64,000 nucleotides of DNA from Candidatus Thorarchaeota archaeon (lineage in GTDB: Archaea; Asgardarchaeota; Thorarchaeia; Thorarchaeales; Thorarchaeaceae), in the NCBI GenBank assembly GCA_008080745.1, contig SHMX01000001.1, positions 159,359 through 223,358 on the forward strand. The letters are read 5' to 3'. Each line of letters starts with the position of its first letter. The stretch's first letter is position 1. Made by a program: the position numbers and the translations under genes. Below are positions 9,301 to 64,000 of the stretch, piece by piece. The notes beneath the pieces were generated by a model. It saw only the letters and a program-made list of their open reading frames with translations, had not been told where the DNA came from and made no database searches.

Positions 9301-9320
9301 GTTAGGAGAAAAACGGGGAA

Positions 9321-9809: not shown

Positions 9810-9859
9810 TGTTATTCAGGTCTCTACTATCCATACAACTTCATAAAGCTAGGTGTAGC

Positions 9860-10981: not shown

Positions 10982-11015
10982 CGGTCCATTATTGCTCTTC
11001 CTAACTTAATTGCTT

Positions 11016-12122: not shown

Positions 12123-13549
12123 TATTTTCGCACCTCCAAACCTAATTTTCCAGGATTCATAATCCCATTGGGATCGAGTTTCTCCTTTATACTCTTTAAG
12201 ACTGAAAACGCAGATTCCAGTTCGTCAACAACATATGTGCTTCTAGAAAGTCCGACTCCATGCTGATGGGACATTGTACCACCCTCTTTTAGACATGCAG
12301 CAACCCCATCATCCCAGATTTTTTTATAGGTTGCCCAGGCACTTTCTGCATCGGGCTGAGCAGTAAAGAAAATCATGTATATACTCCCACCATTGGGATA
12401 CATATGTGAGAAGTGGGATAGCACAACTGCTTCATGTGCTTCCATAGCAGATTTCATAGAATGATAGACATTCTCCAATTTGTCATATGTTGCAACCACA
12501 TCAATGGTGTCACCAATGGCATATCCTGAAGTTGTGAAGGGACTTGGATAGTACATATCAAATCGATGATTCCACCATCTCTCTGCAGGTCCTGCCCCAA
12601 AGTCATTTCCACCTTCTGCAATGCATATTTCCATAACGGTTGCCTCATCTAAATCATTTTTGGAAGTAGACCCATCAAAGGCTAACATAAGCATACAATC
12701 CCCCTCTGCTACATCAAAATGAGTACTAACACTAAAAGCTGTATCTTCAGGATCATATAATCTAATAATTGAAGGACTAATTCCTGCACGGAATATCTTT
12801 CTAATAATTTCTAATCCCGTTGAAACATCTTTTACGCTGACACTACGAAAACGTCTCTCTTCAGGCAGAGGAAAAATTCTGAGTGTTGCCTTTGTAATAA
12901 CACCCAAAGTACCTTCAGAACCAATGAATAACTGACGTAAATCAGGACCAACAGAATGACGGGGCACGGGTTTGCAGAATATCACTTCACCACTAGGTAA
13001 AACAAATTCCAATCCCAAGGTCAAATCCTCAATTTTTCCATATAATGAGGACATAGATCCACCAGACCGAGTTGCGATAAATCCACCAATATTGGATGAT
13101 CTGACTGAGGTGGGTGTATGACCAGATGTGTACCCATGACGATTCAAATACTCCTCCAAATCTACCCCTACAACCCCAGCCTCTACATGGACCATCATAG
13201 AGGTCTCATCAATTTCGAGTATCTTGTCAAATCGTTTCATGTCTAGTTGAATTCCACCGTAAATAGCAAGGGTGCCACCACAGGTTCCAGCACCACCACC
13301 AACAGGGATAACCGGAATTAAGAACTTGTTAGCAATTTTAAGAATCTCAGATACCTCTCTGGTAGTTGATGGAAAGACAATAATATCAGCAAGAGGCAAC
13401 AACTCCCCAGCTCGAATTTTTGCCTCACTGAGAGGCCAAGCATCATGTGCATTGAGGACTTTATCGGTCTGTTGCACAGTGACATAATCAGATCCAAGTA
13501 GAGTATGTAATTTTTCTACTAACTCTCCAAACTTATCAGAATCAATCAT
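12122..13549 (-). CDS. FAD-linked oxidase (GlcD / D-lactate dehydrogenase-like)
   Basis: 475 aa; FAD-binding PCMH-type N-terminal domain (PVGGGAGTCGG) and C-terminal oxidase domain; 1-nt overlap with the downstream Fe-S subunit gene. Confidence 0.8.
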   Translation of the reverse strand: MIDSDKFGELVEKLHTLLGSDYVTVQQTDKVLNAHDAWPLSEAKIRAGELLPLADIIVFPSTTREVSEILKIANKFLIPVIPVGGGAGTCGGTLAIYGGIQLDMKRFDKILEIDETSMMVHVEAGVVGVDLEEYLNRHGYTSGHTPTSVRSSNIGGFIATRSGGSMSSLYGKIEDLTLGLEFVLPSGEVIFCKPVPRHSVGPDLRQLFIGSEGTLGVITKATLRIFPLPEERRFRSVSVKDVSTGLEIIRKIFRAGISPSIIRLYDPEDTAFSVSTHFDVAEGDCMLMLAFDGSTSKNDLDEATVMEICIAEGGNDFGAGPAERWWNHRFDMYYPSPFTTSGYAIGDTIDVVATYDKLENVYHSMKSAMEAHEAVVLSHFSHMYPNGGSIYMIFFTAQPDAESAWATYKKIWDDGVAACLKEGGTMSHQHGVGLSRSTYVVDELESAFSVLKSIKEKLDPNGIMNPGKLGLEVRK

Positions 13550-13555
13550 AACATT

Positions 13556-14785
13556 TCACTCCATAGAGAGATGGGTTGCGATAAACACGGTCAAATCATC
13601 AACATCGATAGGAATACCACTTCGATAGAGATTATCTTCTAATGTTGCAGTACATAATGGACAGGGAGTCACAACTCGCGATGCAGATGTAGCATCTATT
13701 GCCGCAAGATTAATCCCAACAACTGATTTTGCAACACTTGGTGCATGATATGCAACCATTCCACCACCACCGCAACAAGAATCTCTAGCAGAAGAAGTAA
13801 TAACTTCAACATTTGGAATAGCTTGCAGAATTTCCACGGCATAATCCAATATCTGTCGAGAGGTGTGCTTGATAAGATGGCAGGGCTCATGAATAGTGAT
13901 TTTTGTTGCGGATGTGTCTGATGCCATTTCTGCTTGGAGTCTGTCGATACCGATGTGTTCAATAAGATATTCAATCATATGATAGATAGGAATATCCCAG
14001 TTATCTCGTACTGCTATATCACTAATATTGGAAGTACAGCCAGCACAAGTTGTAACCAACATTTTTACTCCAAGAGATTTTATTTTCTCCTTCAGGGATG
14101 TATTCAACTCTCTAGCAGTCTTCTCATCACCAATTAAGCGAGCAGGCAGTCCACAACAGCTCAATTCATCAAGGACTGCAAAGTTCACATCAAATCGTTT
14201 TAGAATTACTTTTGCGGCTTCTTTAACTTCCTGAGCCATTTCTTCTGCTTGACAACCAGGATAAAATAAAACATCAGCACTTTCTTTGCTCTCAATATCA
14301 ACTAGAGGTAGACCCAACCGTTCCAATCTCATATCACGGCTATCAATCTTATCTTCAGGATCATCCCAAGGTGCAAATGCTTTCTCATGTGCATGAATGG
14401 TTTCTAGTACTTTGTGTAATTCTTTTGGAACAAGATCAGGACGGTGTTCGAAAATTCTAGCTCGAATCATATTGACAATCTCAGGGATATTGACGGATTG
14501 CGGACAGACTTCTCTACAGGTTCCACAGCCCGTACAAAGATAGACCTTGTCACCAGTGGTCCAGAATTCAGGAGGGGAGCGGCTTAGCTCAACTGCAATG
14601 CTACGAGGACCACTAAATTGATCAACTCCTACTCCAGCCACAACAGGACAGTGATTAATGCAAATCCCACAATTTATGCACTGTTCAATGGACTTGATTA
14701 TTTCCAATTCATCCTCTTTGTAAGGAATGATTCTTTCTTCTTTCAGGGTTCCCTTAACAAATTCATAAGCTTCTTCTTCGCTCAT
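13556..14785 (-). CDS. glpC: anaerobic glycerol-3-phosphate dehydrogenase subunit C-like Fe-S protein
   Basis: 409 aa; CINCGICINHCP and CTGCGTCREVCP ferredoxin motifs plus CCG domains; abuts glpB. Confidence 0.65.
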   Translation of the reverse strand: MSEEEAYEFVKGTLKEERIIPYKEDELEIIKSIEQCINCGICINHCPVVAGVGVDQFSGPRSIAVELSRSPPEFWTTGDKVYLCTGCGTCREVCPQSVNIPEIVNMIRARIFEHRPDLVPKELHKVLETIHAHEKAFAPWDDPEDKIDSRDMRLERLGLPLVDIESKESADVLFYPGCQAEEMAQEVKEAAKVILKRFDVNFAVLDELSCCGLPARLIGDEKTARELNTSLKEKIKSLGVKMLVTTCAGCTSNISDIAVRDNWDIPIYHMIEYLIEHIGIDRLQAEMASDTSATKITIHEPCHLIKHTSRQILDYAVEILQAIPNVEVITSSARDSCCGGGGMVAYHAPSVAKSVVGINLAAIDATSASRVVTPCPLCTATLEDNLYRSGIPIDVDDLTVFIATHLSME

Positions 14786-16153
14786 TTAGAGTTCCTCCTT
14801 GATATATTTCATAGCGTTTAATCCGGTAGTATAACCTGTAGTGAGACCTACACCCAAACCACTCTTTTCAACGAGATAATTATATCCGGCTAGAACGGAA
14901 CCCGCAGCAAAGACATTCTCATATACTACTTGAGAATCGTAATTGATAGGCCTGAAGTATCTATCAACTGGAACACCCACACTGAAAACAGCGTGACCTT
15001 CGTATTGCACATTAACCCGATCGGTTAACTTCTGAGGTCTCAAATCATCCGTTGGATTATAGTTCAGATCTACAGTGTCTAGATTAAAAATAGATTCTTT
15101 GAAGCCACTCTCTGTTCCTTTAATTCCCCCACCTATGAATTTCCCAGTCGCAAGTATTGTTGAGGTAGCAGATATTTTCATCTTTCTATGGGGACTTTTC
15201 GCAATAATCCGACTCACTCTATCATCAGCTGAATCATATCCTACAACCTCATGACCAACAATCATCTGTCCTCCAGATTCTAGATACATAGCATCCAGTG
15301 ATTGTTGGAGTCGCATTCCAGGTACTGACGGTGGAAAAGAAAGAACCTCAAACGGATGTACGCCAAGTTCAGCTATTTCTTGTAAGACAGTATTGGCGGA
15401 TTCAATGCCCATGACAGGAGGTAGAGCCACATGTGTTGCACCAGTATTTTCAATGTTCTTTCTCAGCTCAGAGAGGGCCTCCTTAGGTAGTCCTGAATGA
15501 TCAAGATGACGGGCAACCTCAACAGATGAAATGTTGTAAGGTTTGCCAAACGGAGTTATTGTTATTGAACAGCTTGATACTCTCTTGACAGGTTTATCCG
15601 CGTACCTCTGAAATTCTGCATAAGTCCGTGCAGCAAGCCTACCATTGAAATCAGGATGCCCCACTATGTCAACGAAGAGGAGATTGCTATCGTCATGATC
15701 CTTTACAAGATTCCCCATATCCATCGTCTTCTGGACAAAGCATGTGGGTTTTGTTGTACCTAGAACCGTTATTGCCTCCATGGCTTGGTCCAAAGCCCCA
15801 GTAAACTCAGCACATAAACCATCCAGGTTCCTCTGTAACCATTTCACAGAATCTTTGACCCTCTGAACAATTAATTCAGTGTGGACTTCTCGATTGTTCT
15901 CTGAAATACCCAAAATGACATAGGGATGGGTAGATCGAATCACTCCAGTAGTAGACAAGGCATCAATAGGACTCAGAGGGAATTGACTCTCAACAAGATT
16001 TCCTAGAATATCAATAGCACCCGATGAGTAGGACGTTGCTCCTCGACCTTTCCTGATCAAGATAGTTTTTAGACCCGATTCAGAAGCGATAGTTCCTGCA
16101 ACGAGACCAGCAATACCACCGCCAATAACAGCTAAATCATATTCGTGTTCCAT
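14786..16153 (-). CDS. glpB: anaerobic glycerol-3-phosphate dehydrogenase subunit B
   Basis: 455 aa; N-terminal FAD dinucleotide fold DLAVIGGGIAGLVAG followed by GATSYSSGAIDILG, the GlpB signature region. Confidence 0.7.
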   Translation of the reverse strand: MEHEYDLAVIGGGIAGLVAGTIASESGLKTILIRKGRGATSYSSGAIDILGNLVESQFPLSPIDALSTTGVIRSTHPYVILGISENNREVHTELIVQRVKDSVKWLQRNLDGLCAEFTGALDQAMEAITVLGTTKPTCFVQKTMDMGNLVKDHDDSNLLFVDIVGHPDFNGRLAARTYAEFQRYADKPVKRVSSCSITITPFGKPYNISSVEVARHLDHSGLPKEALSELRKNIENTGATHVALPPVMGIESANTVLQEIAELGVHPFEVLSFPPSVPGMRLQQSLDAMYLESGGQMIVGHEVVGYDSADDRVSRIIAKSPHRKMKISATSTILATGKFIGGGIKGTESGFKESIFNLDTVDLNYNPTDDLRPQKLTDRVNVQYEGHAVFSVGVPVDRYFRPINYDSQVVYENVFAAGSVLAGYNYLVEKSGLGVGLTTGYTTGLNAMKYIKEEL

Positions 16154-16154
16154 T

Positions 16155-17816
16155 CTACGACCAATCCTCCCATGGCTTACGAGTATAGACAGACCCGAGG
16201 GTCAGATCAAGATTTCCAACGCAGGCGTACATTCCCTGAGCGACCTCTTCCTGAATGATCTGTTCCCGTCTGAAGGAGGGGCGTTTCCCTTTCCATCGCT
16301 CTGAAAGAAAATCAAGTATATCCAACTGGAAATCATGCCCACTTAGCTCCCGTTCGTCTGCTAAGATAGCAGCAGCTTTATACGTGCAAAAAGTTGCTTG
16401 GCAAGGGCCAGTACCCAGTCTAACTCGACGACGTAAATCGTTGAGAGTCTGGGGAAACTCGTGTCTTATGCTGTATCGAATTTCAGCCTCTATCACAGGT
16501 TCACAGGTACAGATTGTTGTCTTCCAGTCGGGGTGATCTTTTGTCAGTTCCAAAATCATTCTTGTTTCAGTTCCGCGTCTAGCCCTCAAACGCTCTACAG
16601 CATGTTGTGATATATCGAACTCTTTAGCAAGAGCAAGAACATCCACATCATCTTCGTTGCCTGGTAATGGTTCCAGATGAGTTTTGCATTCAGTTTCAAC
16701 TCTCAACATTTCTGCGGCTAGATCAGTGGCTGCTTCAGCCATATGTCTGCACATTACCAGTTTTCCACCGGTGAAGCTGATAAGACCTTTAATATTCTGT
16801 GAAGAATGATCAATTATCTCGTAGCCACGGGTGACTTTTCCCTCAGGAATCTTCCAATCTGCAACGAGAGGCCGGACTCCTTCCATTGTCCGAATTATTC
16901 GAGCATCACGAATAGAGGGAATAACCCATTCCATACTCTGCAGCAAGTATTCTATCTCATCGTGACTTGCGGTAAGGGTGTCTGGGTCCTCCCAAGTATC
17001 AATAGCAGTTGTTCCAAGAAGAGTGGTATTTTCATGAGGAAAAAGATAGATCATCCGTCCGTCAACAGCTTTCGCAATGACGCCCACATTGACTACTCTT
17101 CGGTCTAAAATTACATGTGCACCCTTGTTCAGACGTAAATCAACCTTGGCTTCAGCAAATTTAGCAACTTTTGATGCCCAGGGACCAGCTGCATTGATGA
17201 CAATATGTGTTGAAACCCGTTTTTCTTCACGCGTAATCCTATTGAAATAGACAACTCCAACAATCTTCCCGTCTTTAACATCAATATCTACCAGCTCACA
17301 ATACGTTTTGACATCAGCACCATGATTCTTCGCATCTAGTGCTTGCAAGATACATAAACGAAAAGGATCTATGAAGTATTCTTCAAAATATAACGATGCA
17401 ATAATTTCCGGATTTAGAGATGGTTCAATCTCACGAGAGTCTTCAGGAGTGAGAAACAACACAGGAGGAACATCTCGTGATTCCGCCCGTTTAGAATATT
17501 CCTCTGCAAAATTCCCTCCACTTGAGAGGTCACTCATCTCAAGCATAGGAGTCAGTATGGGGTTTTTCATAATGATATGGCGAGCAATCCGAAGAAAGTG
17601 GACTACCTCATCAGAACACATATCGACAATTTCAGGTTCATCCATGTATTTCAGACCGGAGGATATCATTCCCGCACAGGTGCCAACTGTTGCAGAAGCA
17701 ATATCATCTCGTTCTAGAAGCAATGTACGAAGACCTCTCATTGCACAGTCACGGGCGACAGCTGTACCAGTGCTACCAGCACCAATGACTACAACATCAT
17801 AATCAGCCATTTTCAC
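16155..17816 (-). CDS. glpA: anaerobic glycerol-3-phosphate dehydrogenase subunit A (FAD-dependent, with C-terminal BFD-like 2Fe-2S domain)
   Basis: 553 aa; DYDVVVIGAGSTGTAVARD FAD fold; C-terminal Cys cluster CTCEPV...GTGPCQATFC. Confidence 0.8.
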   Translation of the reverse strand: MKMADYDVVVIGAGSTGTAVARDCAMRGLRTLLLERDDIASATVGTCAGMISSGLKYMDEPEIVDMCSDEVVHFLRIARHIIMKNPILTPMLEMSDLSSGGNFAEEYSKRAESRDVPPVLFLTPEDSREIEPSLNPEIIASLYFEEYFIDPFRLCILQALDAKNHGADVKTYCELVDIDVKDGKIVGVVYFNRITREEKRVSTHIVINAAGPWASKVAKFAEAKVDLRLNKGAHVILDRRVVNVGVIAKAVDGRMIYLFPHENTTLLGTTAIDTWEDPDTLTASHDEIEYLLQSMEWVIPSIRDARIIRTMEGVRPLVADWKIPEGKVTRGYEIIDHSSQNIKGLISFTGGKLVMCRHMAEAATDLAAEMLRVETECKTHLEPLPGNEDDVDVLALAKEFDISQHAVERLRARRGTETRMILELTKDHPDWKTTICTCEPVIEAEIRYSIRHEFPQTLNDLRRRVRLGTGPCQATFCTYKAAAILADERELSGHDFQLDILDFLSERWKGKRPSFRREQIIQEEVAQGMYACVGNLDLTLGSVYTRKPWEDWS

Positions 17817-43595: not shown

Positions 43596-46500
43596 TTATT
43601 TCGTTGGACGAATTATTTGGGGACCAACTATATCATGGAAGAGCTCTAGATAGGAAGAATCACTAGATAGCAAACTAAAGGGCTCATCAGAGTCTGTACC
43701 TAAGAGTATAATTTTATTGTCAGCAACCGCCATTAATGGAACATCTTGGGAATAGATAATCCTCCAACCCGGCAGTTCTTCAATACTGGGTTCACCATCT
43801 TCGGGTAAGGGAATGATCAATATCTTTCTTCGAGGTTTGGAAATCTTGGAAATCTTCTTTAGGTCTAAATCACCAGGATTTGGACTTGCAATCACTATTG
43901 ATTCTTCAGCTTGATTAGCCAGAGCTAGTATCTGTGAATAAATTGCCTCTTTTCCTTTGATATACCAAGTCTTACCAGATTGTGATAGAATTTCTCGACT
44001 GGCTTTTTGGATAACCTCAAGACTCTCAATCGATTTCTCTGTTACTGATTTCACACTCTCGAATGATGAATCTAAATTCTTCTGAAAATCAGTGTATTGT
44101 TTCTCCAGCTTGGTCACCCACCTTCTGATTGATTTATCCATCTCGGTGCTCATAGCTGTCAATACTTCGGACCTAGTTTGTTTCAGTTCTGAAGTTGTTT
44201 CTGTCATGACTGTGTTAGTCGTGGCTGTCGTTTCATTAATCTCAATATTCTTTGTAGCCACGTCAGCACGGATAGATTCCATTAATTCATAGGATTTTGT
44301 ACTCACATCAGTTTTTAATTCAACACCAAGGGACTCAAATTTCCTCGAAGCTTGCTGATTGGCAACAAGAACATTTTGACGAGTTTTATCAAGTATGTCA
44401 TCACAATTGGATCGCAGTTTCTTAGCAGTTCTCTCAAGGAGAGTAGTTATTTCATCATGGGCTGATTCCAACGAGAGGGAATAATCATGAAGTGAAGTAT
44501 TCAGTTCCGAGTTAGCTTCGGAATGAACCGCAGCTACTCCCTTCTTTATCGATTTTGTAGCTTCTTCAACACCAACTTTTGCACTCTCTGGCATAGCATC
44601 AATGGACTCCTTAACTCGCTCTAGAGCTGTTGCAACCATTGATTCAAAGTCCGTAGCTTGTGAACGAAGCTTCGATTCAGTTTTATCAAATAGACCAATA
44701 CTCATAGCTTCTAGTTTTTCAATAGTTTCATCACCCTTCGATAGTATATTCTCGGTTGCCTGTTCAGAAGTTTTGGAAAGTTGTTGTTGGACCAAGGTAA
44801 GCTCATTATCCAATTTACTTCCGAGAGCGGTAAGCGATGACTCTACATTAGAAACTGCAGATTCAACCCAGACAGAGGCAGCGTCGAAGGCTAAAGCAAC
44901 TTCGTTCTTTCTGGTTTCTAAAGTCTTCATGATATCCTCCTTAGACTTGCTTCTTGCTTTCACAGCTTTTGATTCCGCTTCCGTGATTGAACTTTGATAG
45001 TTTTCAAGACGTTCAGAGGATACCCTCGCTCTTGCACTGTATAGTGCATCCAGTTTCTTACTAGTTTCAGCTAGTGTTCTCTGTTTGGCATCACTTTGAG
45101 ATGAAAGGAATGACTCTGCCTTTGTTTTGATAGCACCAGTTGATTTGGTAATGAAAGTCTTGGCATCATCACGTGCACCCCCAATCCTTTCAACCACAGT
45201 ATCCCTACCACTACTGATTGAAGCATTGAACTCTCGAGATACCTGAGTAAGATTTTCTCCAAGCTGCCGAATTGTGCCACTGCTCATCTCTCTTAATGAC
45301 TCAGCAGTTGTGATCATTGATTGTTCAAGATTATCTATAGCGGTGTTAACCATTGAGGTAATTGAAGTACGCTTCTCAGAGCTCACCGTCTGAAGTGTTT
45401 CTCGAATCTCCTCCGCATGTTCAGCTACTTCATCAACTCGACTCTGTAATTGTATTGTGTACTCCTCTTGTATTTTGAGTGAATCGGATTCTAGGGAGGA
45501 AATCTCTGTTCTAATAGCATTCTTAAATTCGGTATGAGCTGAACCAATAAGATCAGTTGCTTCCAAGGTCTGACTAGAAATTAAGGCATTGAAAGACGAC
45601 TCTGTGCTCTGGGTTAGAGTGATGAATTGACGAGTTATCTCTTCAAGTTTGACATGGAATTCCTCCTGGATCCCTTTCGCCATTCGCTCTATTCGTCCCG
45701 TCTGATCTTCAATGGTGGAATCAATTTCTTTTTGAATCCGAGTAGCATGGCTAGTTAAGGTTGACACACTCTGAGCGAGTCTTTCATTCAGAGTTGTCCC
45801 AAGTTCTTGGTAGAGTGTCTTCGTGACATCTACCTGTGTCTTTGTAGTAGTTGCAAAATCGTTTATGATATCTGTAAATGTACTCTCAAGAGAGGACTCA
45901 AACTCTGTAGACATAAGTTTTGCATCAGAAAGAATTGCTTCACTTTGACTTGCTGATTTAGATATAATGCTGTCAAATGCAGTCTTTAGTCGACTATTCA
46001 TATTAGTAACAAGAGAATTAAATTCTGACGATTCTGTATCAAGAACTTGAGAGATTTCATCTACAGCACCAGTTAGTTTCTTCTCAATTTCTTCTCCGGC
46101 AATTGAAGCCCAATCATCAATATCAGCATTGAGTGTTTCACCATCTTCCTGTATTCTAGCATCATCAGCTTCAAGTTGGCCTTGTAGTAGGGAGAGTATG
46201 GAATTCCGCACCTCGCTGACATGAACATCGAAATCTGAATTAATCGATTTTGCAAAAGATTTCAAGCGGGCAAATTCATCACTCAGAAATCCACTCGCCT
46301 TGTCAAAATAGGTATTCACCGAGGTTCGAATAACTTCATGATAAGAATCGTCAGTGTCAGACACCTGTTCAAGTTGAGCGGTGACAGACTGATTTGCAAC
46401 CTCCATAAATCCTGTCACTTCTTTCTTCCAAGCTGAAATGTCACTTAGGACTGAAATAGTAGCGTCAATTGCAGTCTGAATTTCATGCTGAACGTGTTCT

Positions 46501-47489
46501 GCTTGTTCACGAGGAATCTCTTTAGCACTTTCAAGCATGCCATCAAGAGACTCCTTCGCACCGAGGTAGGATTCACCTAGAGTACTATCAAACTCACTAA
46601 GACTGGTTTTCAAATCTGAGATGAGTTGGTTTAGCTGTTTTACGCTTTTCTTTGAGATATCTGTCGATTTTGCAAGTACTACCTTTACAATTTCTTTTGA
46701 TGCATCATCAAGAGCTCCCTCTGATTCTGATAGTGCTTCGTTTATTGATGACCTAATTTGCTCTACTAATTCAGCTATCTTGTTGCTTACACCATCTATC
46801 GAATCTGAAACGGAGGTGGTCTCATCATTAAGCCAATCATCGAATTCGGTGGCAATCTCATCGGTGGATTCGATTAATTGTTTTTGGCTGGCATCTAATG
46901 ACTTCTGCAATTCTGACAATAAAACTCCTAGGCGATTGTCCAATCCAGTATCGATTTCTGTAAGTACAGTTTCTAGCTGTTCAACCAAAGAATTGAGAAC
47001 ATTAGTTACAGTTCCAGATATCTCTTCAATCTGGTCACGAACAGTAGTAACCATCTCGTTTTCATATTCGTCTAAAGCATTGGTTACTTTGAGATCTCGT
47101 TCTTTATGAGACTCGAGTAAATTCTGGGCAAGTGAGCTTGTTGTTTTTTCTTGCTCACCAATGACATTTTCAGAAACCTCTTTGATTGAGGAAAATTCGT
47201 CAAGCATCTCTTGGAGAGATGATACCACCATCGTATCAAGGGGTACAGCCCGATAAACCGGAATTACACCCTCTAGCTCTACCACATAACCTTTCTCAAT
47301 CAATTTCTTCAGTGTTGATTTTACTTTTGAGGTCTTTTCACCAATTAATAGAGCTACTCCCTCAGCAGTAATATTACCACTCGCAAGTATGGGATAAAGC
47401 ACAGAAGCTTCAAGTTTGGTGAGACCAAGATTGGATTTCAATACAGGAACAGTTTCAGTCATCAAATTGCCACTCACTACTAATACCAC
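43596..47489 (-). CDS. giant (1297-aa) protein: N-terminal TrmB-like winged helix, about 1000-aa Ser/Thr/Glu-rich helical (coiled-coil-like) region, C-terminal globular domain
   Basis: N-terminus LTKLEASVLYPILASGNITAEGVALLIGEKTSKVKSTLKKLIEKGYV is helix-turn-helix-like; long helical low-complexity core; C-terminal about 130 aa (WYIKGKEAIYSQILALANQAEESIVIA...) is not low complexity. Confidence 0.6.
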   Translation of the reverse strand: MVLVVSGNLMTETVPVLKSNLGLTKLEASVLYPILASGNITAEGVALLIGEKTSKVKSTLKKLIEKGYVVELEGVIPVYRAVPLDTMVVSSLQEMLDEFSSIKEVSENVIGEQEKTTSSLAQNLLESHKERDLKVTNALDEYENEMVTTVRDQIEEISGTVTNVLNSLVEQLETVLTEIDTGLDNRLGVLLSELQKSLDASQKQLIESTDEIATEFDDWLNDETTSVSDSIDGVSNKIAELVEQIRSSINEALSESEGALDDASKEIVKVVLAKSTDISKKSVKQLNQLISDLKTSLSEFDSTLGESYLGAKESLDGMLESAKEIPREQAEHVQHEIQTAIDATISVLSDISAWKKEVTGFMEVANQSVTAQLEQVSDTDDSYHEVIRTSVNTYFDKASGFLSDEFARLKSFAKSINSDFDVHVSEVRNSILSLLQGQLEADDARIQEDGETLNADIDDWASIAGEEIEKKLTGAVDEISQVLDTESSEFNSLVTNMNSRLKTAFDSIISKSASQSEAILSDAKLMSTEFESSLESTFTDIINDFATTTKTQVDVTKTLYQELGTTLNERLAQSVSTLTSHATRIQKEIDSTIEDQTGRIERMAKGIQEEFHVKLEEITRQFITLTQSTESSFNALISSQTLEATDLIGSAHTEFKNAIRTEISSLESDSLKIQEEYTIQLQSRVDEVAEHAEEIRETLQTVSSEKRTSITSMVNTAIDNLEQSMITTAESLREMSSGTIRQLGENLTQVSREFNASISSGRDTVVERIGGARDDAKTFITKSTGAIKTKAESFLSSQSDAKQRTLAETSKKLDALYSARARVSSERLENYQSSITEAESKAVKARSKSKEDIMKTLETRKNEVALAFDAASVWVESAVSNVESSLTALGSKLDNELTLVQQQLSKTSEQATENILSKGDETIEKLEAMSIGLFDKTESKLRSQATDFESMVATALERVKESIDAMPESAKVGVEEATKSIKKGVAAVHSEANSELNTSLHDYSLSLESAHDEITTLLERTAKKLRSNCDDILDKTRQNVLVANQQASRKFESLGVELKTDVSTKSYELMESIRADVATKNIEINETTATTNTVMTETTSELKQTRSEVLTAMSTEMDKSIRRWVTKLEKQYTDFQKNLDSSFESVKSVTEKSIESLEVIQKASREILSQSGKTWYIKGKEAIYSQILALANQAEESIVIASPNPGDLDLKKISKISKPRRKILIIPLPEDGEPSIEELPGWRIIYSQDVPLMAVADNKIILLGTDSDEPFSLLSSDSSYLELFHDIVGPQIIRPTK

Positions 47490-48483: not shown

Positions 48484-49593
48484 TTAGCCACTATGCGCTT
48501 CTTTCAATTTCGGAATCCAAGATCGAAACTCTTTATTCAAACGAGCAATATCGTTCTCATTTAGAGTCGCTGTAGCAGGATAGGACTTTAGCTCACGTGC
48601 AACTTTACCAAACTGAAATAGAACGGGAGAATGTACCTTGATCATCTCCGTGAGGGTGTCACGAGCTTTTTCGAGTGCCTCTGCCATTTTTACAGCCTCT
48701 GTCTGAGGTTTAACCATATCCAATAGAGATTGCATAATTTCGTCCATTGTTCCCTCAGGTTCATAATCCACAGAAGGTTCTTCTTCTCCAGAATCTTCAG
48801 CTTTCTTCTGTTTTTTTGATTTCGTTTCTTTTTCTTCAGGTGCATAACCGGTATCTACGAATTTGCCAATAACAGCAAGAGCCTCATTAACCTCTTTGAG
48901 GGTCTTGTTATACTTTCGTTCAATATCATCAAGCTGACGAACGATTATTCCTACAATCTCCTTGGTTTCCCCAAAACTGTCAGACAAATCACTAATTCGT
49001 TCTTCAAGAGTGGAAAGACTTGCCACATAGGACTGGAGTTCATCAATTTTCTTGGAGATGACCTCTGTTTGAGACCCGGAAGTGTCACCTACCTCTTTTA
49101 CACTGGTACACAGACCAGCTACCGAATTGATGATGTCATCCATCTTTTTGCGAATTTCCTTCTCACCCTCATCAGAAGAGGCCTCTTTAAGTCGCTCATC
49201 AACATCTTTCATTGAGATAAGAACATCATCTATTTTCTTGATAATGACTTCACCCTCTTTCGCATCAGTCATAGTCTTAATTCCAGTATCTATGCTCATT
49301 ATAGTGTTGGCAATATCTTCCATCTTTTGTCCCAAAGTTTGAATATCCTTAGATTCCTGAACCTTTTTGAGACCTGTATCTACATTTCTAACAGATGAAA
49401 GTAATTCATCAATTTTTGTTACTGGACTTATCTCCTTTTTCACAGCGTCCAAGTCAGAATCGATAGCATCAACTTTCTTAGCCAAGCTTGGAATAATGCT
49501 TACCGCCTTCAGCACCTCTCTAATAGCTGCAAGCTCCTCTGATATTCTATCTACTTTCTTTTCCAATTTCCCGATTGATGCTTCGTCCGACAT
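48484..49593 (-). CDS. coiled-coil repeat protein
   Basis: 369 aa; recurring about 20-residue units (LAKKVDAIDSDLDAVKKEI, IKKIDDVLISMKDVDERLKE, RKKMDDIINSVAGL, SKKIDELQSYVASL). Confidence 0.5.
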   Translation of the reverse strand: MSDEASIGKLEKKVDRISEELAAIREVLKAVSIIPSLAKKVDAIDSDLDAVKKEISPVTKIDELLSSVRNVDTGLKKVQESKDIQTLGQKMEDIANTIMSIDTGIKTMTDAKEGEVIIKKIDDVLISMKDVDERLKEASSDEGEKEIRKKMDDIINSVAGLCTSVKEVGDTSGSQTEVISKKIDELQSYVASLSTLEERISDLSDSFGETKEIVGIIVRQLDDIERKYNKTLKEVNEALAVIGKFVDTGYAPEEKETKSKKQKKAEDSGEEEPSVDYEPEGTMDEIMQSLLDMVKPQTEAVKMAEALEKARDTLTEMIKVHSPVLFQFGKVARELKSYPATATLNENDIARLNKEFRSWIPKLKEAHSG

Positions 49594-58878: not shown

Positions 58879-60612
58879 CTAAGACTCGCTAAAACAAGAC
58901 TGCAAGTCTTTGATTATTTTTTCTTTTGCTATTCCAATATATTCGGAGTTTGCCTCAATAGTCAAATCGTTAATTATGCCATTCCGCCGGTCATAATGTA
59001 ATGTGACTTTAGTGTCATCCTCGCCTTTTGAAGGAAGAATGTAATGAACACGGACGTCCTCTGAATCGTCTTGGAACTCCTCATCAATCGATATTATTTC
59101 TTTGTTTGCTAGATACTCCTCGATGGCAGCAACGTCACATTTTTGATTCAGGGTCACCCGTACTAGATGACTTTTCTCGACCTTTGATTCAAGCCAGTCC
59201 ATTCCCTTCTTTAGGACAATAACTATTGCGGTCCAAAGAGTAACAGCTAAGGTGAAGAATAAAATTGGATTGCTTTCTGGAAACAGATGGAAATCTGTTG
59301 AATACTCTCCAGTGATTGCTAAGACAATGTCGAAAGCAATGGTACCAGAAAGAATCAATTCAATGACATTGAGAACATTACCTGTTCTTTCGCTTGCACG
59401 AATGACTTCGCTTGTGCTTTGGGTATTGTCACGAAGTGCACTATAGACCCTTCGCATCTGTTGTTCAATTTGTGTAGAAAGCAAGGTCTGAAGACCTTCG
59501 ACTTCACTAGAAAGGCTCTGGAGATCAATGTCGGTGTCACTAATACGGTTCATGAGACGATCAAAGGTATTTTGAAAGTTTAGTACAGACACAGCTTCTT
59601 CATCGACACCCTCTCGTTCTGAAAGCCACTTTTCTTTGAGTAGAGCAAAACCTCTCTTTAGATAGCTGCCTATCGATTGAATTATGGTGAAGTTTGCTGA
59701 GGCTTCGGTCAATATATTTTGTGCTCGAGTAATGACCGAATGATCACCACTAGCAGTCTTTTCAATAAGTATTCTTACTTGAGCTAACTCATCCCAGAGC
59801 AATGACATCCTGTGGTAGAGGCCATCAACAAACATTTCAGCACTTCGTACTAGTGCATAAAAGGATACAAGAGATTCATATTTGCTCCAGTTTTCAGAAA
59901 CAAGAATGAGGCCAGCATCTCCAACAAGAAGCAGACTTCCATCGTTTAGTCGATGTGTGATGATTAAATTATCTAGTAGTTGCTCCAGTTCGTTCTGATA
60001 TTCTTCTCCATCCATATACTGTGTTATATCATCAAAATTTGGAGCCATTGAACTAGCAAGCATGCCAACAAATTTGTATCGACTTCTCGATTCACCTTTG
60101 TAAATACAATCCATTAGACGTCGTTGATGATGAGTGAGTAGTGTTTCCATCATTAAAGAGCTATCGTATATTAGATCAACCACTACTCTGGATATTTTGT
60201 CCAAGGAAACCCCATTGATATTTGTTTCTTCTCCACAAGTTTCGAATATCTCGGCGCCATAGACAACATGACCATCATGGCTGATGTACATTCCAACGGT
60301 TTCTTCCTGTTCTATAGATGAGTCATCGTCAGGGTCTTGTATCTTAATCTCACTTGCAATATATTCAGAATTAGCAGCATCGATTACTCGGACAAAGTTG
60401 ATTTCAGACTCGCTGGTAAAAGTAGTACTCTCAGGAAACTTATCAACCAACATAGTGACAAATTCGCCATGCACGTGACGAGTTGACATCAATTTGTTTC
60501 CAATGTCTTCTAGTATATTTCGATCACAGGGTATGTACTCACTCAGCAGAATTCTTACATCCTTTAGTATCATAGATTCTGTTAGGTCATCTCGAATGTT
60601 GCCTCCACTCAT
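58879..60612 (-). CDS. membrane-anchored protein, unknown function (C-terminal two-helix hairpin reminiscent of CorA-like topology)
   Basis: 577 aa; large soluble N-terminal region, hydrophobic segments NVIELILSGTIAFDIVLAI and ILFFTLAVTLWTAIVIVL near the C-terminus, then about 95-aa tail. Confidence 0.45.
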   Translation of the reverse strand: MSGGNIRDDLTESMILKDVRILLSEYIPCDRNILEDIGNKLMSTRHVHGEFVTMLVDKFPESTTFTSESEINFVRVIDAANSEYIASEIKIQDPDDDSSIEQEETVGMYISHDGHVVYGAEIFETCGEETNINGVSLDKISRVVVDLIYDSSLMMETLLTHHQRRLMDCIYKGESRSRYKFVGMLASSMAPNFDDITQYMDGEEYQNELEQLLDNLIITHRLNDGSLLLVGDAGLILVSENWSKYESLVSFYALVRSAEMFVDGLYHRMSLLWDELAQVRILIEKTASGDHSVITRAQNILTEASANFTIIQSIGSYLKRGFALLKEKWLSEREGVDEEAVSVLNFQNTFDRLMNRISDTDIDLQSLSSEVEGLQTLLSTQIEQQMRRVYSALRDNTQSTSEVIRASERTGNVLNVIELILSGTIAFDIVLAITGEYSTDFHLFPESNPILFFTLAVTLWTAIVIVLKKGMDWLESKVEKSHLVRVTLNQKCDVAAIEEYLANKEIISIDEEFQDDSEDVRVHYILPSKGEDDTKVTLHYDRRNGIINDLTIEANSEYIGIAKEKIIKDLQSCFSES

Positions 60613-61184
60613 TCTTTTTCACCTCTAGCTAAATCACCAATACCAAGATATTTTGGGAGATAAGATCTGGACTTGTACGGAATGTCCTCAAGGTCATCAA
60701 TAGAAACTCTTTCGCGAATTCCACATGCAGTACAAAAGAGATAGAACTGACGATTTTGAATTTCTACAAATCTAAGGTGTTCTGAGTTGCAATAAAGTAA
60801 CTGGTTAACTGTTTTCTTAATCTCTTCTGAGGCTGATGAGAGAAAACTTGCCCCCCGTGGAGTAACTCGATAAGCGGTTATGTATCCATAATTACCAGTA
60901 CTCAAACGAAGTATAGAAATTAACCCGAGTCTCAAGAGGTCTTCAAGATCGTCTTTCGCCTCACGACTTACATTTAACCATTGTCGGGTACCATCCAGCA
61001 TTTGTACACTCCAGGGAGCATAGTCATATGTTTCAAAAAGACCAGTGATGATACCCTTGTAAATAAGGGTGGCAAGTGGAAGTTCTTTTATCCATTTAGG
61101 ATCCTTTTCTTTCTCTTCTTGAAGCGTATACTTGTGGATGATATGCAATAACTTGATCATATCCTCAGTTATTTCGTCCTGCAT
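60609..61184 (-). CDS. hypothetical protein with possible winged helix and Cys pair
   Basis: 191 aa; 4-nt overlap with the downstream membrane-protein gene. Confidence 0.45.
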   Translation of the reverse strand: MQDEITEDMIKLLHIIHKYTLQEEKEKDPKWIKELPLATLIYKGIITGLFETYDYAPWSVQMLDGTRQWLNVSREAKDDLEDLLRLGLISILRLSTGNYGYITAYRVTPRGASFLSSASEEIKKTVNQLLYCNSEHLRFVEIQNRQFYLFCTACGIRERVSIDDLEDIPYKSRSYLPKYLGIGDLARGEKE

Positions 61185-61314
61185 GATATACCTCCAGTAT
61201 TTGTAGTCGAAATAGTAGTCAGAAATCCTCCTAAAGAGTCTATTGTGAAAATAATCGAAGAGGTTTTCTAGAACGCTTAATTATAATGCTGCATATGGTA
61301 TTCTGGGGACCACT

Positions 61315-61587
61315 ATGGAGTCATTGATAATATCACGTGATGAGATTCTTAAAAGCACACTTTTTCATATTCAGGTCAAAAGATGTCAATTCATTGATAA
61401 TTTTCCTGAAGTCGTGACCGAAGTGATTCACGAATCTATGGTTGAAAAAGGAATCTCAGACTACGCAAAATTAAAGAGAAAGCTCTACAGGATAGATACC
61501 AATTTCTTCACGATCAACAAGGATAAGATCAAGAAGAAAGACTTCTATGAAAGCCTATATTCAAGAATACAGGCCAGAGCTAGCTGA
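61315..61587 (+). CDS. hypothetical small protein
   Basis: 90-aa ORF with GGGGA upstream of the ATG; no motif. Confidence 0.3.
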   Translation: MESLIISRDEILKSTLFHIQVKRCQFIDNFPEVVTEVIHESMVEKGISDYAKLKRKLYRIDTNFFTINKDKIKKKDFYESLYSRIQARAS

Positions 61588-61642
61588 TTTTTTCAACCAT
61601 GTTGAGTCGAGAGAGCGGGATGGTGGGGACCAATCTGAGCTC

Positions 61643-63421
61643 TCAGACCTCAACAAGATTCAAAGTTACCACAAATTTTGCACCAAGATTAGGATTATCC
61701 TCCACTCGATTTTGGACCGAAATATTACCACCGTATTTTCTAATCATCGAAGCTACAAGTGTAAGTCCAACTCCACCATAACGTCGACTCTTATCGAAAA
61801 CAGACTGTTTCTTTGCATCACTTATTCCAGGCCCGTTATCCTCGATAATGAGGTCCACCGAATCATCTCTAGAAAAACATGAAATCCATACTTTTTTCTC
61901 GTCTTTGGGATTATGTCGTGCTGCATTCTCAAGCAAATTCCAAATCAATTCTCCAAGAAGGGTGTCAGCCTCTACATAGACGGGCCCATCAGGGAGGTCC
62001 AGATCTATTATAGCATTGTATACCCTCTTCAAAACAGCAGCTTTCTCATGGACCACACTAATCAGGTCAATCTCAGATTCTGGAAGGGCTGATAACTGAC
62101 TGGCTCGCTTTACCTTTGTAATCAGTCGATTGCATCTTTGGGCAGCGTCAAGCACATCATTCCTAGCATCATCAATGTAAGATGTTGGAAGTTCGGAATC
62201 AAGAAGACCTGCTGAGGTGATGATTATTTGTAACTGATTGGCAATATCATGAGATAAGAGATCGAGATAAAACTGAACAGTTTCTTCTGCGTTCTTCTGT
62301 TTCGTAATGTCTGTAATCACTGCAAAGGTGCCTTGGAATTCATTATTTGAGTCAAAGATTGGCATTGCAGAAACAACACTATGGATTACTTCACCCTGTT
62401 TACTAAGCCATTGTAATTCGTAGTGTTCAGATATTCCTTTTGTACGGTCGGTATGTTTTCTCCTTGCATCCGCCTCATTCATCGATAAAGCAAAGTCAGT
62501 CCACCTATTACCAACAATCTCATCTTGGTCGTATCCTAACATCTCACAGAATGCCTTGTTGGTATAGATAAGAATACCATCTTCATCATCTATGACTAGA
62601 CCATCATTCATAGTTTCTACAAGCATACGATACCGAGATTCAGTCTCTCCAAGAGCCTCTAGTTCCTGTTCCTGATGGGTAACATCTAGAAAATGAGCAA
62701 CTGTTTTTACCGATCCATCACTCAAATGGATGACCTCAACATTTACCTCAATCGTCTTTAATTCTCCATTTGGGGTCTCAATCTGTAGGTGATAAGATGA
62801 AGGAACATCAATTCCATCCTGTCTTTTCCTGAATATGGGTTCTAACTTAGCAATTTGTTCAGGTGTAAGAAATTCATCGAAACGATGACCTAGAGTTACT
62901 TCAGCCGGTCGCTCCATGACATCAACTGCCCTTTTGTTAACATATTCAATTATTCCCTTGTCATCAAGTACCAGAATACCATCGTGTGAATAATCGATTA
63001 TCACACTTTGGACTTCTCCTAACGATTCAACCGATGAAGTAGAATCTTGCCAGTCCTTCATTTCAACTACGACATAGAATCGATTAGTATCATTGTCATT
63101 TTTTTTGTAATGGATTTTTAGAACTGCAGAACTGGAATCAGTATCATTTAGAAGTACAGGTAAATCGATTTCCGAGCCGGATTTTTTTAGTTTCTCAAAC
63201 TGCTCTATTACAGAAGGATGATAATTTGTGTTAATAACATCCAATAATGTGAGAGAAGATATATCCTTCTCAGAAATATAATCAAAAATATTTCTAGCAT
63301 ATTGATTCATTTCTATGATTGATAGGTTCTCGTCTAAGAACAGAATTGCAATCGGAATATCAGCCAATTGAACTAAGGTGTCCTCTGAAGAAGTGATATT
63401 TCTCTTCGATTTCTTAGACAT
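61643..63421 (-). CDS. PAS-domain sensor histidine kinase
   Basis: 592 aa; PAS-like repeats, H-box LSHDIANQLQII, N-box NLLENAARHN, G1 DNGPGIS, G2 GGVGLTLV. Confidence 0.85.
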   Translation of the reverse strand: MSKKSKRNITSSEDTLVQLADIPIAILFLDENLSIIEMNQYARNIFDYISEKDISSLTLLDVINTNYHPSVIEQFEKLKKSGSEIDLPVLLNDTDSSSAVLKIHYKKNDNDTNRFYVVVEMKDWQDSTSSVESLGEVQSVIIDYSHDGILVLDDKGIIEYVNKRAVDVMERPAEVTLGHRFDEFLTPEQIAKLEPIFRKRQDGIDVPSSYHLQIETPNGELKTIEVNVEVIHLSDGSVKTVAHFLDVTHQEQELEALGETESRYRMLVETMNDGLVIDDEDGILIYTNKAFCEMLGYDQDEIVGNRWTDFALSMNEADARRKHTDRTKGISEHYELQWLSKQGEVIHSVVSAMPIFDSNNEFQGTFAVITDITKQKNAEETVQFYLDLLSHDIANQLQIIITSAGLLDSELPTSYIDDARNDVLDAAQRCNRLITKVKRASQLSALPESEIDLISVVHEKAAVLKRVYNAIIDLDLPDGPVYVEADTLLGELIWNLLENAARHNPKDEKKVWISCFSRDDSVDLIIEDNGPGISDAKKQSVFDKSRRYGGVGLTLVASMIRKYGGNISVQNRVEDNPNLGAKFVVTLNLVEV

Positions 63422-63529
63422 TATAACAACACCAGTTCAATATTCAAGTCATTCATTCAGTCAATAACTCTATTGGATTTGTAAGGACACTATTTCATTC
63501 CGTGTAATATCAATCTCAGGATGGAAATA

Positions 63530-64000
63530 TCAGCTTTTCTCGATTTTCCTCCAAAATCGTGTCGCACTTCTCTGACGACCATATCCAATAAGATCATCCA
63601 TTAATACAATCATTCGGTTCAACCAAGGCATATGTCGAACCATCCAAAGAACCATTTTGTGAAGAACGTTGTTTGGTTTGTTGTAAGGGCAGCTACGAAT
63701 GCAGTTTGAGCATTCACCACCATTTTGTACCCAGAAATCGTAACAGCTCTCAACGTCCACATACCATTTCTTTACTCCTGGATTGTTAGATTTTGACGTT
63801 CCTTTCCAACTCTGTTCTTTATCATAGGGGATAGACTGTGAAGGGCAATCTTTTGCGCATCTTTTACAGGTTTTACAAAACCGGATAACAGAATCACAAA
63901 AACCCTTGTCGGGTTTATCGGGAATAAGAGGCATATCAGTTAGAATTTTAGCAAGTCTGACCCTTGGACCATATTCCTTTGTTATAAGTAAACCATGACG
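63530..64000 (-). CDS. reductive dehalogenase / epoxyqueuosine reductase-like 4Fe-4S protein, C-terminal part (5' end lies beyond the window)
   Basis: Reading frame is open to the window edge; ...ITKEYGPRVRLAKILTDMPLIPDKPDKGFCDSVIRFCKTCKRCAKDCP...CSNCIRSCPY carries the two ferredoxin-type motifs typical of RdhA/QueG C-termini. Confidence 0.55.
   Translation of the reverse strand, partial: RHGLLITKEYGPRVRLAKILTDMPLIPDKPDKGFCDSVIRFCKTCKRCAKDCPSQSIPYDKEQSWKGTSKSNNPGVKKWYVDVESCYDFWVQNGGECSNCIRSCPYNKPNNVLHKMVLWMVRHMPWLNRMIVLMDDLIGYGRQRSATRFWRKIEKS

Follow-up and report, generated by a model that had tools for sequence, protein, structure and literature searches.

A putative cytoplasmic reductive dehalogenase of Thorarchaeota with an N-terminal ferredoxin domain, encoded beside a soluble multi-PAS histidine kinase

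The window analysed here is a stretch of 64,000 nucleotides of Candidatus Thorarchaeota archaeon DNA (contig SHMX01000001.1), whose last positions fall within a gene of the reductive dehalogenase (RdhA) family, transcribed ahead of a gene for a PAS-domain sensor kinase. The locus raises several questions: whether the truncated gene encodes an RdhA or a QueG-type tRNA-modification enzyme, whether such an enzyme would work at the membrane or in the cytoplasm, and whether the adjoining kinase controls it. On the minus strand, translation gives 156 stop-free codons from the window edge down to a closing TGA at 63530-63532, and the other two frames are stop-rich. The listing of ATG-started ORFs holds only a 134-aa version (63530-63934), shorter than the true ORF because the latter overruns the window edge. 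The fragment matches the NCBIfam model TIGR02486, 'reductive dehalogenase', over profile positions 167-314 of 314 (E = 4.2e-38), with 131.9 bits, a score that stays below the model's cut-off since only half of the protein lies inside the window. The QueG model TIGR00276 (NCBIfam) gives 9e-9 and 34.8 bits, and Fer4_7 and Fer4_16 (Pfam) score above their cut-offs. The first-pass annotation had described an RdhA-like gene interrupted at the edge of the window, with twin ferredoxin motifs in the last 470 nt and a frame open to 64000; the open frame, the TIGR02486 match and the two cysteine motifs bear this out, and the coordinates were accurate.

The missing 5′ part, which that annotation had proposed to recover by extending the contig, was obtained from a public contig (L001) carrying an identical kinase. 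Positions 9422-12421 of L001 are identical to window positions 61001-64000. The whole gene spans L001 8540-9892 and encodes 450 aa, of which the first 294 residues lie outside the window (L001 8540-9421). Full-length RdhA reaches 217.5 bits against TIGR02486, above the cut-off of 160.35. Both C-terminal motifs, CxxCxxCxxxCP and Cx2-12CxxCxxxCP, are present, starting at residues 336 and 380, respectively (Table 1); among 48 homologues, seven of their eight cysteines never vary, the exception being C339, conserved in at least 90%. Residues Y250, N276 and R309 align with Y246, N272 and R305 of PceA (4uqu). In the same 48 homologues, Y250 and N276 are invariant and R309 is at least 90% conserved; R309 is the sole member of the trio encoded within the window.

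Table 1. Features of the RdhA-kinase locus, in window coordinates
Feature	Position	Strand	Basis
Conserved 90-aa ORF, convergent with the kinase, same syntenic block	61315-61587	plus	tblastn
Multi-PAS sensor histidine kinase (soluble, 592 aa; TXT57506.1)	61643-63421	minus	PAS_9, PAS_4, PAS, HATPase_c (Pfam)
HATPase_c, kinase residues 487-589	61655-61963	minus	60.6 bits; N NLLENAARHN, G1 DNGPG, G2 GGVGL
His391 codon, H-box LLSHDIANQL, presumed phospho-acceptor	62249-62251	minus	motif and NCBIfam kinase alignments
Third kinase PAS, residues 263-380	62282-62635	minus	PAS_9, best stretch 272-374, whole-protein E = 2.7e-32
Second kinase PAS, residues ~142-250	62672-62998	minus	Diguanyl_cycl_sensor, best stretch 142-231
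N-terminal region of the kinase, probably PAS-like, residues ~20-125	63047-63364	minus	PpsR-CrtJ match, residues 31-186 (NCBIfam)
Spacer from RdhA stop to kinase start, 108 nt	63422-63529		
RdhA-family gene, 3′ part	63530-64000	minus	residues 295-450 of 450 and TGA 63530-63532
Second C-terminal cluster motif CYDFWVQNGGECSNCIRSCP, C380-x10-C391-x2-C394-x3-C398-P399	63686-63745	minus	
First C-terminal [4Fe-4S] motif CKTCKRCAKDCP (C336, C339, C342, C346, P347)	63842-63877	minus	Fer4_7/Fer4_16
Arg309 codon, counterpart of PceA Arg305	63956-63958	minus	alignment to 4uqu, codon mapping

The relationship to known enzymes is consistent across methods. In a PDB sequence search, the full protein is closest to the PceA enzymes of Sulfurospirillum multivorans (4UQU, 6.4e-60) and Desulfitobacterium hafniense (8Q4H, 2.5e-58), followed by NpRdhA (1.9e-26) and QueG (6.6e-7). 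Fold comparison used AF2 models of a full-length homologue (P0002, 73% identical; pLDDT 87.3, pTM 0.82) and of an nr entry (P0001, 100% identical) whose 350 aa cover residues 101-450. In Foldseek, the former retrieves PceA at ~1e-25 (TM ~0.6), NpRdhA at ~1e-19 and QueG at ~1e-7; the latter, modelled with lower confidence (pLDDT 71.6), leaves this order unchanged, with PceA at E ~1e-17 to 1e-15. The models thus place the corrinoid-binding core with PceA as far as the fold is concerned, and PceA is the best solved match in both sequence and fold. QueG belongs to the same superfamily and likewise has a corrinoid-binding core and two [4Fe-4S] clusters, but its fold similarity is weak (TM ~0.3), its C-terminal part has no alignment to the thorarchaeal protein, and TIGR00276 gives the full protein 49.5 bits where its cut-off demands 200, over profile positions 113-199 of 337 only. 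Identity with QueG is therefore ruled out by the HMM scores and by the order of matches in PDB sequence and fold, and the full-length protein, whose grouping with QueG the first-pass annotation had left to be checked, falls on the RdhA side in profile, PDB and Foldseek rankings alike.

A broader version of the same idea is that the protein is no dehalogenase but a corrinoid/Fe-S reductase of this superfamily acting, in a QueG-like manner, on some other, housekeeping substrate. Archaea use archaeosine and are not known to use queuosine, which speaks against such a role, as do the failure of the QueG model, the retention of the catalytic Tyr, Asn and Arg of PceA, and the position of the two PceA enzymes as the closest solved structures. 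The idea nevertheless draws on the surroundings of the gene: its neighbours are housekeeping genes, and GC content is even across the locus (0.34-0.45), so that it does not look like a recently acquired catabolic island. The gene also occurs in almost every Thor- and Lokiarchaeota genome analysed by Manoharan et al. (2019, PMC6737245), in a conserved neighbourhood. In the literature searched, no Asgard RdhA proven to dehalogenate was found, and the label 'dehalogenase' is for this protein a homology call. Full-length RdhA further lacks a match to the N-terminal 'Dehalogenase' domain of Pfam (PF13486), even at E <= 1; this points to the limits of a single profile and not to a defining biochemical feature, since TIGR02486 aligns from profile position 81, and among the 120 homologues listed only P0099 carries the domain. 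On balance, a housekeeping, non-dehalogenating reductase appears distinctly improbable. Recent horizontal transfer was considered separately and leaves no compositional sign in the even GC content.

The protein differs from PceA in its N-terminal part. The polypeptide consists of an N-terminal ferredoxin domain, a disordered linker and a PceA-like, presumed corrinoid-binding core with two C-terminal Fe-S clusters. The N-terminal domain holds two groups of cysteines (C8, C13, C17, C21 and C47, C50, C53, C57), all eight of them invariant in the 48 homologues. It gives weak matches to RLI-type Fer4 profiles, and ABCE1 appears at rank 50 in the fold search; the domain thus resembles the ABCE1/RLI type and would hold two [4Fe-4S] clusters. 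The nr entry WPM93861.1 (350 aa) begins at Met101, 100 residues late, and has lost this conserved domain.

The same region bears on the cellular location of the enzyme. The first-pass annotation had suggested looking for a TAT signal and an rdhB-like anchor gene, and neither turned up. There is no RR within the first 80 residues of RdhA, and no membrane helix in the protein (maximum 19-residue hydropathy 1.3). The called neighbours of the gene, a histone-deacetylase family gene, the kinase and the 90-aa ORF, include no rdhB-like anchor gene; the spacers flanking RdhA measure 179 nt and 108 nt, and none of the real ORFs within L001 6500-12500 has a membrane segment. With a folded Fe-S N-terminus whose invariant cysteines begin at residue 8, a signal peptide would have no place. 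Lacking export signal, membrane helix and RdhB anchor, RdhA should therefore stay in the cytoplasm, and classical membrane-bound organohalide respiration by this enzyme is unlikely. One may still imagine a respiratory dehalogenase, tethered to the membrane through an archaeal partner that escaped recognition or exported by a signal that did so. The catalytic core is indeed nearest to quinone-dependent respiratory PceA enzymes, a cold-seep study of 2025 places RdhA-like proteins of Heimdallarchaeia with N-terminal ferredoxin domains among the 'quinone-dependent' types, and archaeal signal peptides are poorly characterised (Manoharan et al. 2019, PMC6737245). Against the missing twin-arginine motif, hydrophobic segment and adjoining membrane-protein gene, the folded Fe-S domain at the N-terminus and the failure to detect rdhB in Thor- or Lokiarchaeota genomes (PMC6737245), this hidden export or attachment seems very improbable.

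Comparison with the two characterised classes clarifies what kind of enzyme this would be. With PceA, the thorarchaeal protein shares both C-terminal Fe-S motifs, the Tyr/Asn/Arg active site and the C-terminal helices, the similarity being strong only from about residue 170 on. PceA itself has a TAT signal, is anchored by PceB outside the membrane and receives electrons from menaquinol, whereas the thorarchaeal protein is without TAT signal and PceB and carries the two-cluster ferredoxin domain instead. The NpRdhA/BhbA-type enzymes (4RAS) resemble it in being cytoplasmic, without TAT or RdhB, and in having an electron-input module fused to the catalytic domain, but the relationship is more distant than to PceA. 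NpRdhA has Lys488 at the position where PceA has Arg. The fused module also differs: according to the literature, NAD(P)H is the electron source of NpRdhA/BhbA-type enzymes, some of which draw on it through fused FAD/NAD- and 2Fe-2S-binding domains, while in the thorarchaeal protein the module is a 2x[4Fe-4S] ferredoxin domain. Pfam and NCBIfam models find no NAD(P)H-reductase module (flavin, 2Fe-2S) in it, and the 4Fe-4S domains stand alone outside the core.

We consider it likely that the gene encodes a cytoplasmic, four-cluster, corrinoid-dependent reductase, the putative reductive dehalogenase of Baja_Thor. Counter to this explanation, the core is nearest to the respiratory PceA enzymes and not to the known cytoplasmic class of NpRdhA. 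For such a reductase, we infer corrinoid binding, an electron path and a substrate class as follows. A low-potential donor, either reduced ferredoxin or a partner oxidoreductase, would load the N-terminal clusters, from which electrons would reach the cobamide by way of the two C-terminal clusters. Its cobalt, once reduced and aided by Tyr250, Arg309 and Asn276, would then strip the halogen from an organic substrate, a reaction that could serve in detoxification, in the salvage of halogenated aromatics or as a fermentative electron sink. A further point against this explanation is that complete corrinoid biosynthesis is apparently absent from the genomes analysed by Manoharan et al. (2019, PMC6737245).

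The gene is already known. RdhA and the kinase have exact GenBank matches, TXT57507.1 and TXT57506.1 (locus tag BAJATHORv1_10208), both 100% identical, and the gene is the published putative dehalogenase of Baja_Thor, the single one in that genome. The first-pass annotation had called dehalogenase-like genes in archaea ecologically interesting, but whatever novelty this implies is absent: Manoharan et al. (2019, mBio, PMC6737245) described putative reductive dehalogenases of Thor- and Lokiarchaeota, Baja_Thor included. They reported that a TAT signal and a B protein are lacking, that an additional 4Fe-4S domain stands at the N-terminus in Thorarchaeota, and that equivalents of Tyr246, Arg305 and Asn272 are conserved, as is synteny; all these features of the Baja_Thor gene are reproduced in the present analysis. 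The term histidine kinase is absent from that paper, and the search for literature on RdhA together with a histidine kinase in Thorarchaeota returned nothing relevant. The GenBank product name of RdhA, '3-chloro-4-hydroxyphenylacetate reductive dehalogenase', is over-specific for the evidence; the kinase is named 'hypothetical protein'.

The kinase is, as the first-pass annotation had it, a multi-PAS protein encoded directly downstream on the same strand, with two confident PAS domains and an HATPase_c domain. It has no membrane segment (maximum 19-residue hydropathy 1.27), and its residues 251-589 align with PnpS, AtoS and WalK in NCBIfam. PAS families match two stretches, the best of which is located at about residues 263-380; the other probably corresponds to the second PAS domain. 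The region ahead of these, PAS-like as far as can be inferred, is missing from many thorarchaeal orthologues, whose alignments begin at about residue 136-141. No match to Pfam HisKA is found in the kinase, so that the assignment of the H-box comes from the motif together with the NCBIfam kinase alignments.

How closely the two genes belong together can be judged from related loci. The kinase adjoins RdhA in 34 of the 48 that could be assessed, and the spacer between them measures 69-160 nt in all but one measurable locus. The pair sits inside a collinear block with genes for the proteasome alpha subunit, NrdG and a RimK-family ligase. The 90-aa ORF belongs to the same block: tblastn hits to it come from 34 related loci, in each of them right behind the kinase and on the opposite strand. 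Four loci (L042, L043, L044 and L048) keep the block without the kinase, as RdhA-orf90-NrdG, and all of these but L042 retain PsmA, the proteasome alpha gene, as well. Ten further loci lack the kinase, five in a ferredoxin/acyl-CoA-dehydrogenase context, four without block genes and one too short, and among 28 more distant loci none has it. The complete Thorarchaeota chromosome CP070761 has RdhA in the alternative context. In two loci of different context, a small PAS_10 protein adjoins RdhA. No response regulator (Response_reg) is encoded by any gene listed for the window or its extension. Two annotations of this neighbourhood were tried and rejected. The radical SAM neighbour is not QueE, an identity that would have pointed to 7-deazaguanine chemistry, but NrdG2 (142.4 bits, cut-off 131.15; QueE models reach about 40). 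PADLOC returned nothing for the MJ1566/MJ1567-like pair, the 90-aa ORF or the kinase as defence genes, and the 90-aa ORF has no Pfam or NCBIfam match either.

The spacer itself is compatible with more than one transcriptional arrangement. A GGTG lies about 10 nt ahead of the kinase ATG, and an element at window positions 63460-63500 on the minus strand is conserved in L002, the closest relative, too. The 108-nt spacer contains no run of five or more T, and such runs occur in 0/33 RdhA-kinase spacers, 4/30 after the kinase, 3/28 after the proteasome alpha gene and 1/29 after NrdG; being equally rare after the other genes of the block, they make the test uninformative on co-transcription. Many orthologous kinases have their own upstream TATA-like box CCTTTAATT and a GGAG, so that an operon with RdhA is not required.

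It had been proposed that the kinase is a substrate-responsive sensor for RdhA. The adjacency on which the proposal was built holds; the regulatory link is unproven, because the adjacency lies inside a housekeeping block, the two genes also occur apart and the window encodes no response regulator. A dedicated sensor controlling RdhA expression by substrate or redox state would suit a soluble kinase with several PAS domains encoded directly downstream at a mostly short distance, and it would agree with the spacer element conserved in the closest relative and with the PAS_10 protein beside RdhA in different contexts. There are bacterial precedents: pceA of Sulfurospirillum is under the control of two-component systems, and in Dehalococcoidia putative cytoplasmic variants of the sensor lie near rdh genes (PMC7755780). 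The thorarchaeal arrangement resembles both PceS/PceP of Sulfurospirillum and the rdhAB sensors of Dehalococcoidia in having a histidine kinase gene beside an RdhA gene, and the latter also in a kinase predicted to be cytoplasmic. It differs from both in that the kinase is downstream, sits in a housekeeping block with no response regulator nearby and is separable from RdhA in relatives. The pair is moreover embedded in a block with NrdG2, the proteasome alpha subunit and the RimK-family ligase, and synteny runs along whole Thorarchaeota genomes (Manoharan et al. 2019, PMC6737245); the kinase-less loci and the separate CCTTTAATT boxes with GGAG of many orthologous kinases likewise argue against a dedicated partner. 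We therefore regard dedicated control of RdhA by this kinase as possible but doubtful. The downstream kinase is in our reading a vertically inherited neighbour, which may sense a cytoplasmic signal, such as redox state or a small ligand, relevant to RdhA.

The question for the field is whether Asgard RdhA-like enzymes dehalogenate, on which substrates and with which electron donor, and here the window adds no advance. It is useful in showing that behind a 'hypothetical protein' stands a soluble multi-PAS histidine kinase, complete and often, though not invariably, encoded next to RdhA, and in identifying an nr entry with a late start and an over-specific GenBank product name. A bolder reading, which we hold very unlikely, is that in Thorarchaeota the soluble multi-PAS kinase and the cytoplasmic, four-cluster RdhA form a functional pair, in which the sensing of a cytoplasmic organohalide or redox signal would switch on a ferredoxin-fed dehalogenase serving as an electron sink for fermentation. 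Were this true, archaea would have in the pair their first organohalide-responsive signalling system, and RdhA enzymes a new energy role, one outside respiration, in relatives of eukaryotes.

At the end of the window, one minus-strand frame reads through 156 codons without a stop before reaching a TGA, and translation shows the remaining two frames of this segment to be closed. The ORF listing of the window gives only a 134-aa, ATG-started piece, because the real RdhA ORF extends past the window edge. Extension of the contig, proposed earlier as the way to recover the N-terminal part, was achieved by exact look-up of the kinase, an identical copy of which lies on a 120,754-bp public contig (Logan SRR10018917_218807) whose positions 31999-95998 are the window. 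In the locus taken from it (L001), positions 9422-12421 are identical to the reverse complement of window 61001-64000, and the complete RdhA gene occupies 8540-9892, encoding 450 aa from a GTG start. Frame, profile matches and ORFs show that the first-pass annotation described and placed the RdhA fragment and the kinase accurately.

Features at the RdhA end of the window
Feature	Position (nt)	Strand	Remark
RdhA-family gene, 3' part	63530-64000	-	residues 295-450 of 450
Arg309 codon	63956-63958	-	only one of the catalytic trio inside the window
Spacer element, ~40 nt	63460-63500	-	common to L002
PAS/HATPase_c kinase, 592 aa	61643-63421	-	108-nt spacer from RdhA stop
orf90, conserved 90-aa ORF	61315-61587	+
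MJ1567/MJ1566_N pair	58879-61184	-	191 aa + 577 aa, overlapping by 4 nt

The window fragment matches the NCBIfam 'reductive dehalogenase' profile TIGR02486 at E = 4.2e-38 (profile positions 167-314 of 314), versus only 9e-9 for the profile of the epoxyqueuosine reductase QueG. The full-length protein scores 217.5 bits and passes the curated RdhA threshold of 160.35. QueG identity was rejected, the score being 49.5 bits against a threshold of 200 with only profile positions 113-199 aligned. Among all PDB sequences, the ranking runs from PceA of S. multivorans (6.4e-60) and D. hafniense (2.5e-58) through NpRdhA (1.9e-26) to QueG (6.6e-7). Foldseek returned the same order, PceA, NpRdhA, QueG, for an AlphaFold2 model of a full-length homologue 73% identical to the window protein (P0002; pLDDT 87.3, pTM 0.82) and for a lower-confidence AlphaFold2-type model of residues 101-450 of the window protein itself (P0001; pLDDT 71.6). 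The RdhA-like identity first read from the fragment is thus borne out, and on the question of RdhA versus QueG, profile scores and the PDB and fold rankings favour RdhA. In the PDB sequence alignment, Y250, N276 and R309 align with PceA Tyr246, Asn272 and Arg305, and they are invariant or nearly so among 48 homologues. A motif search of the window fragment finds the C-terminal Cys motifs CKTCKRCAKDCP and C-x10-CSNCIRSCP.

A sequence scan detects no twin-arginine motif in RdhA, and the protein shows no hydrophobic segment, its hydropathy over 19 residues peaking at 1.3. The search for an rdhB-like anchor gene found no membrane-protein ORF in the flanks; RdhA is preceded by a histone-deacetylase-family gene and followed by the kinase. 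The Pfam N-terminal RdhA model PF13486 does not match. Residues 1-70 form an additional ferredoxin domain whose eight Cys (C-x4-C-x3-C-x3-C and C-x2-C-x2-C-x3-C) are all invariant; it has a weak likeness to the ABCE1/RLI Fe-S domain (profile matches; Foldseek rank 50) and is connected to the core by a linker (residues 68-83) of low confidence in the P0002 model. Such an architecture suggests that the enzyme is cytoplasmic and has a putative four-cluster electron path to a corrinoid; we infer both the path and corrinoid binding. The nr entry WPM93861.1 (350 aa, 'uncultured prokaryote') begins at Met101 and so lacks the eight-Cys domain (L001 8540-8839).

The gene is already known: it is a published gene of the Baja_Thor genome (Manoharan et al. 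2019, PMC6737245). Exact look-up identifies the protein as TXT57507.1, '3-chloro-4-hydroxyphenylacetate reductive dehalogenase' (MAG, Candidatus Thorarchaeota archaeon), and the kinase as TXT57506.1, 'hypothetical protein BAJATHORv1_10208'. The GenBank name of the former ('CprA-type 3-chloro-4-hydroxyphenylacetate dehalogenase') is an over-specific transferred annotation. The same study reported that its putative dehalogenases lack TAT signals and B proteins, that those of Thorarchaeota carry an extra N-terminal 4Fe-4S domain, that Tyr246/Arg305/Asn272 are kept, that identity to PceA is ~30-33%, and that synteny is conserved, with the Baja_Thor gene as reference. A 2025 cold-seep study, too, describes Asgard RdhA-like proteins with 4Fe-4S ferredoxin domains at the N-terminus. 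Among the 2454 relatives found, the best 120 are Asgard proteins, most of them ~430-510 aa long, and 'reductive dehalogenase' is the label of many. The literature searched contains no biochemical test of any Asgard RdhA.

The kinase has an H-box, LLSHDIANQL (His391), N, G1 and G2 boxes, no membrane segment and two confident PAS domains (Pfam/NCBIfam); its N-terminal region is taken to be PAS-like too. The multi-PAS histidine kinase recognised initially, downstream on the same strand, is upheld by these domains and boxes. Its relation to RdhA was followed in 80 related loci from species-representative genomes, searched with every gene of the RdhA neighbourhood. RdhA of at least 48% identity occurs in 52 loci, 48 of which have enough downstream sequence, and 34 of these 48 carry an orthologous kinase directly 3' of RdhA on the same strand. 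Where the flank suffices, the block runs histone-deacetylase family ... RdhA - kinase - orf90 (opposite strand) - NrdG2 - proteasome alpha - RimK-family ligase. Four loci keep the block without the kinase (L042, L043, L044, L048). Ten more are kinase-less: in five (L013, L021, L026, L032, L060) RdhA has an alternative context, with a divergent ferredoxin/acyl-CoA-dehydrogenase cluster upstream and, in four of these five, a methyltransferase directly 3' of it (the L026 copy lies ~3 kb away); L025, L033, L041 and L046 have no block gene in common, and the flank of L037 is too short to judge. None of 28 more distant loci (Hermod-, Borr-, Bathyarchaeia, bacterial) has the kinase, and no response regulator is encoded within the window. 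The adjacency is real and common; genome collinearity explains it equally well, and the two genes are separable. Dehalococcoidia and Sulfurospirillum offer a precedent (PMC7755780), and control of RdhA by this kinase is a possibility that we rate as rather unlikely.

Upstream of many orthologous kinases, a TATA-like CCTTTAATT at ~-55 and GGAG at ~-12 suggest that they have their own promoter. The spacer element of the window is shared, with GAATGAAATA and ACAAATCCAATAGAGTTATTGAC kept, with L002 (RBin_111, a 73%-identical relative), the remainder of the spacer being unlike L002, and might serve the kinase as promoter or operator. An oligo-T terminator test on RdhA-kinase spacers was uninformative about co-transcription.

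Among the neighbours, orf90 (63-91% identity in best matches, 34 related Asgard loci; no Pfam, NCBIfam or PADLOC match) is always found just past the kinase, in the opposite orientation; in loci that lack the kinase it lies just past RdhA instead. The pair carrying precomputed Pfam labels MJ1567 and MJ1566_N, the 577-aa product having a hydrophobic C-terminal segment, sits between orf90 and NrdG; L002 and L004 have it in the same place, and L027 and L009 do so at least partly. The majority of Thorarchaeota loci are without it, PADLOC gives no match, and it looks like an inserted cassette. Elsewhere in the window, a ~1290-aa protein (43596-47489, minus) that carries a TrmB-type DNA-binding domain at its N-terminus and has long coiled-coil-like regions stands beside a 369-aa coiled-coil protein (48484-49593, minus) with weak Spectrin, ATG17-like and CENP-K matches; for an archaeon, both architectures are large and unusual. 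FAD-oxidase/GlcD-like, CCG-domain (HdrD-like) Fe-S, glycerol-3-phosphate-dehydrogenase-like and FGGY-kinase genes (~9860-17816, minus) and beta-oxidation genes (~20.8-27.6 kb; thiolase, enoyl-CoA hydratase, 3-hydroxyacyl-CoA dehydrogenase) are ordinary metabolism, unconnected to RdhA.

A stand-alone 144-aa PAS_10 protein lies divergently beside RdhA in L026 (L085 7407-7841) and L060, in the alternative context; it is a second, independent PAS-RdhA association, of two cases only. In several Thorarchaeota loci, the divergent cluster upstream of RdhA comprises ferredoxin, acyl-CoA-dehydrogenase and nitroreductase genes. A class-I SAM methyltransferase gene directly 3' of RdhA on the same strand is found where the kinase is not adjacent (L013, L021, L032, L060, L068, L075, L079), a pairing that spans Thor-, Hermod- and Promethearchaeota MAGs and might say more about function than the kinase does. 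What is left as new is the candidate kinase-RdhA link, together with the biochemistry of the Asgard RdhA enzymes as a clade.
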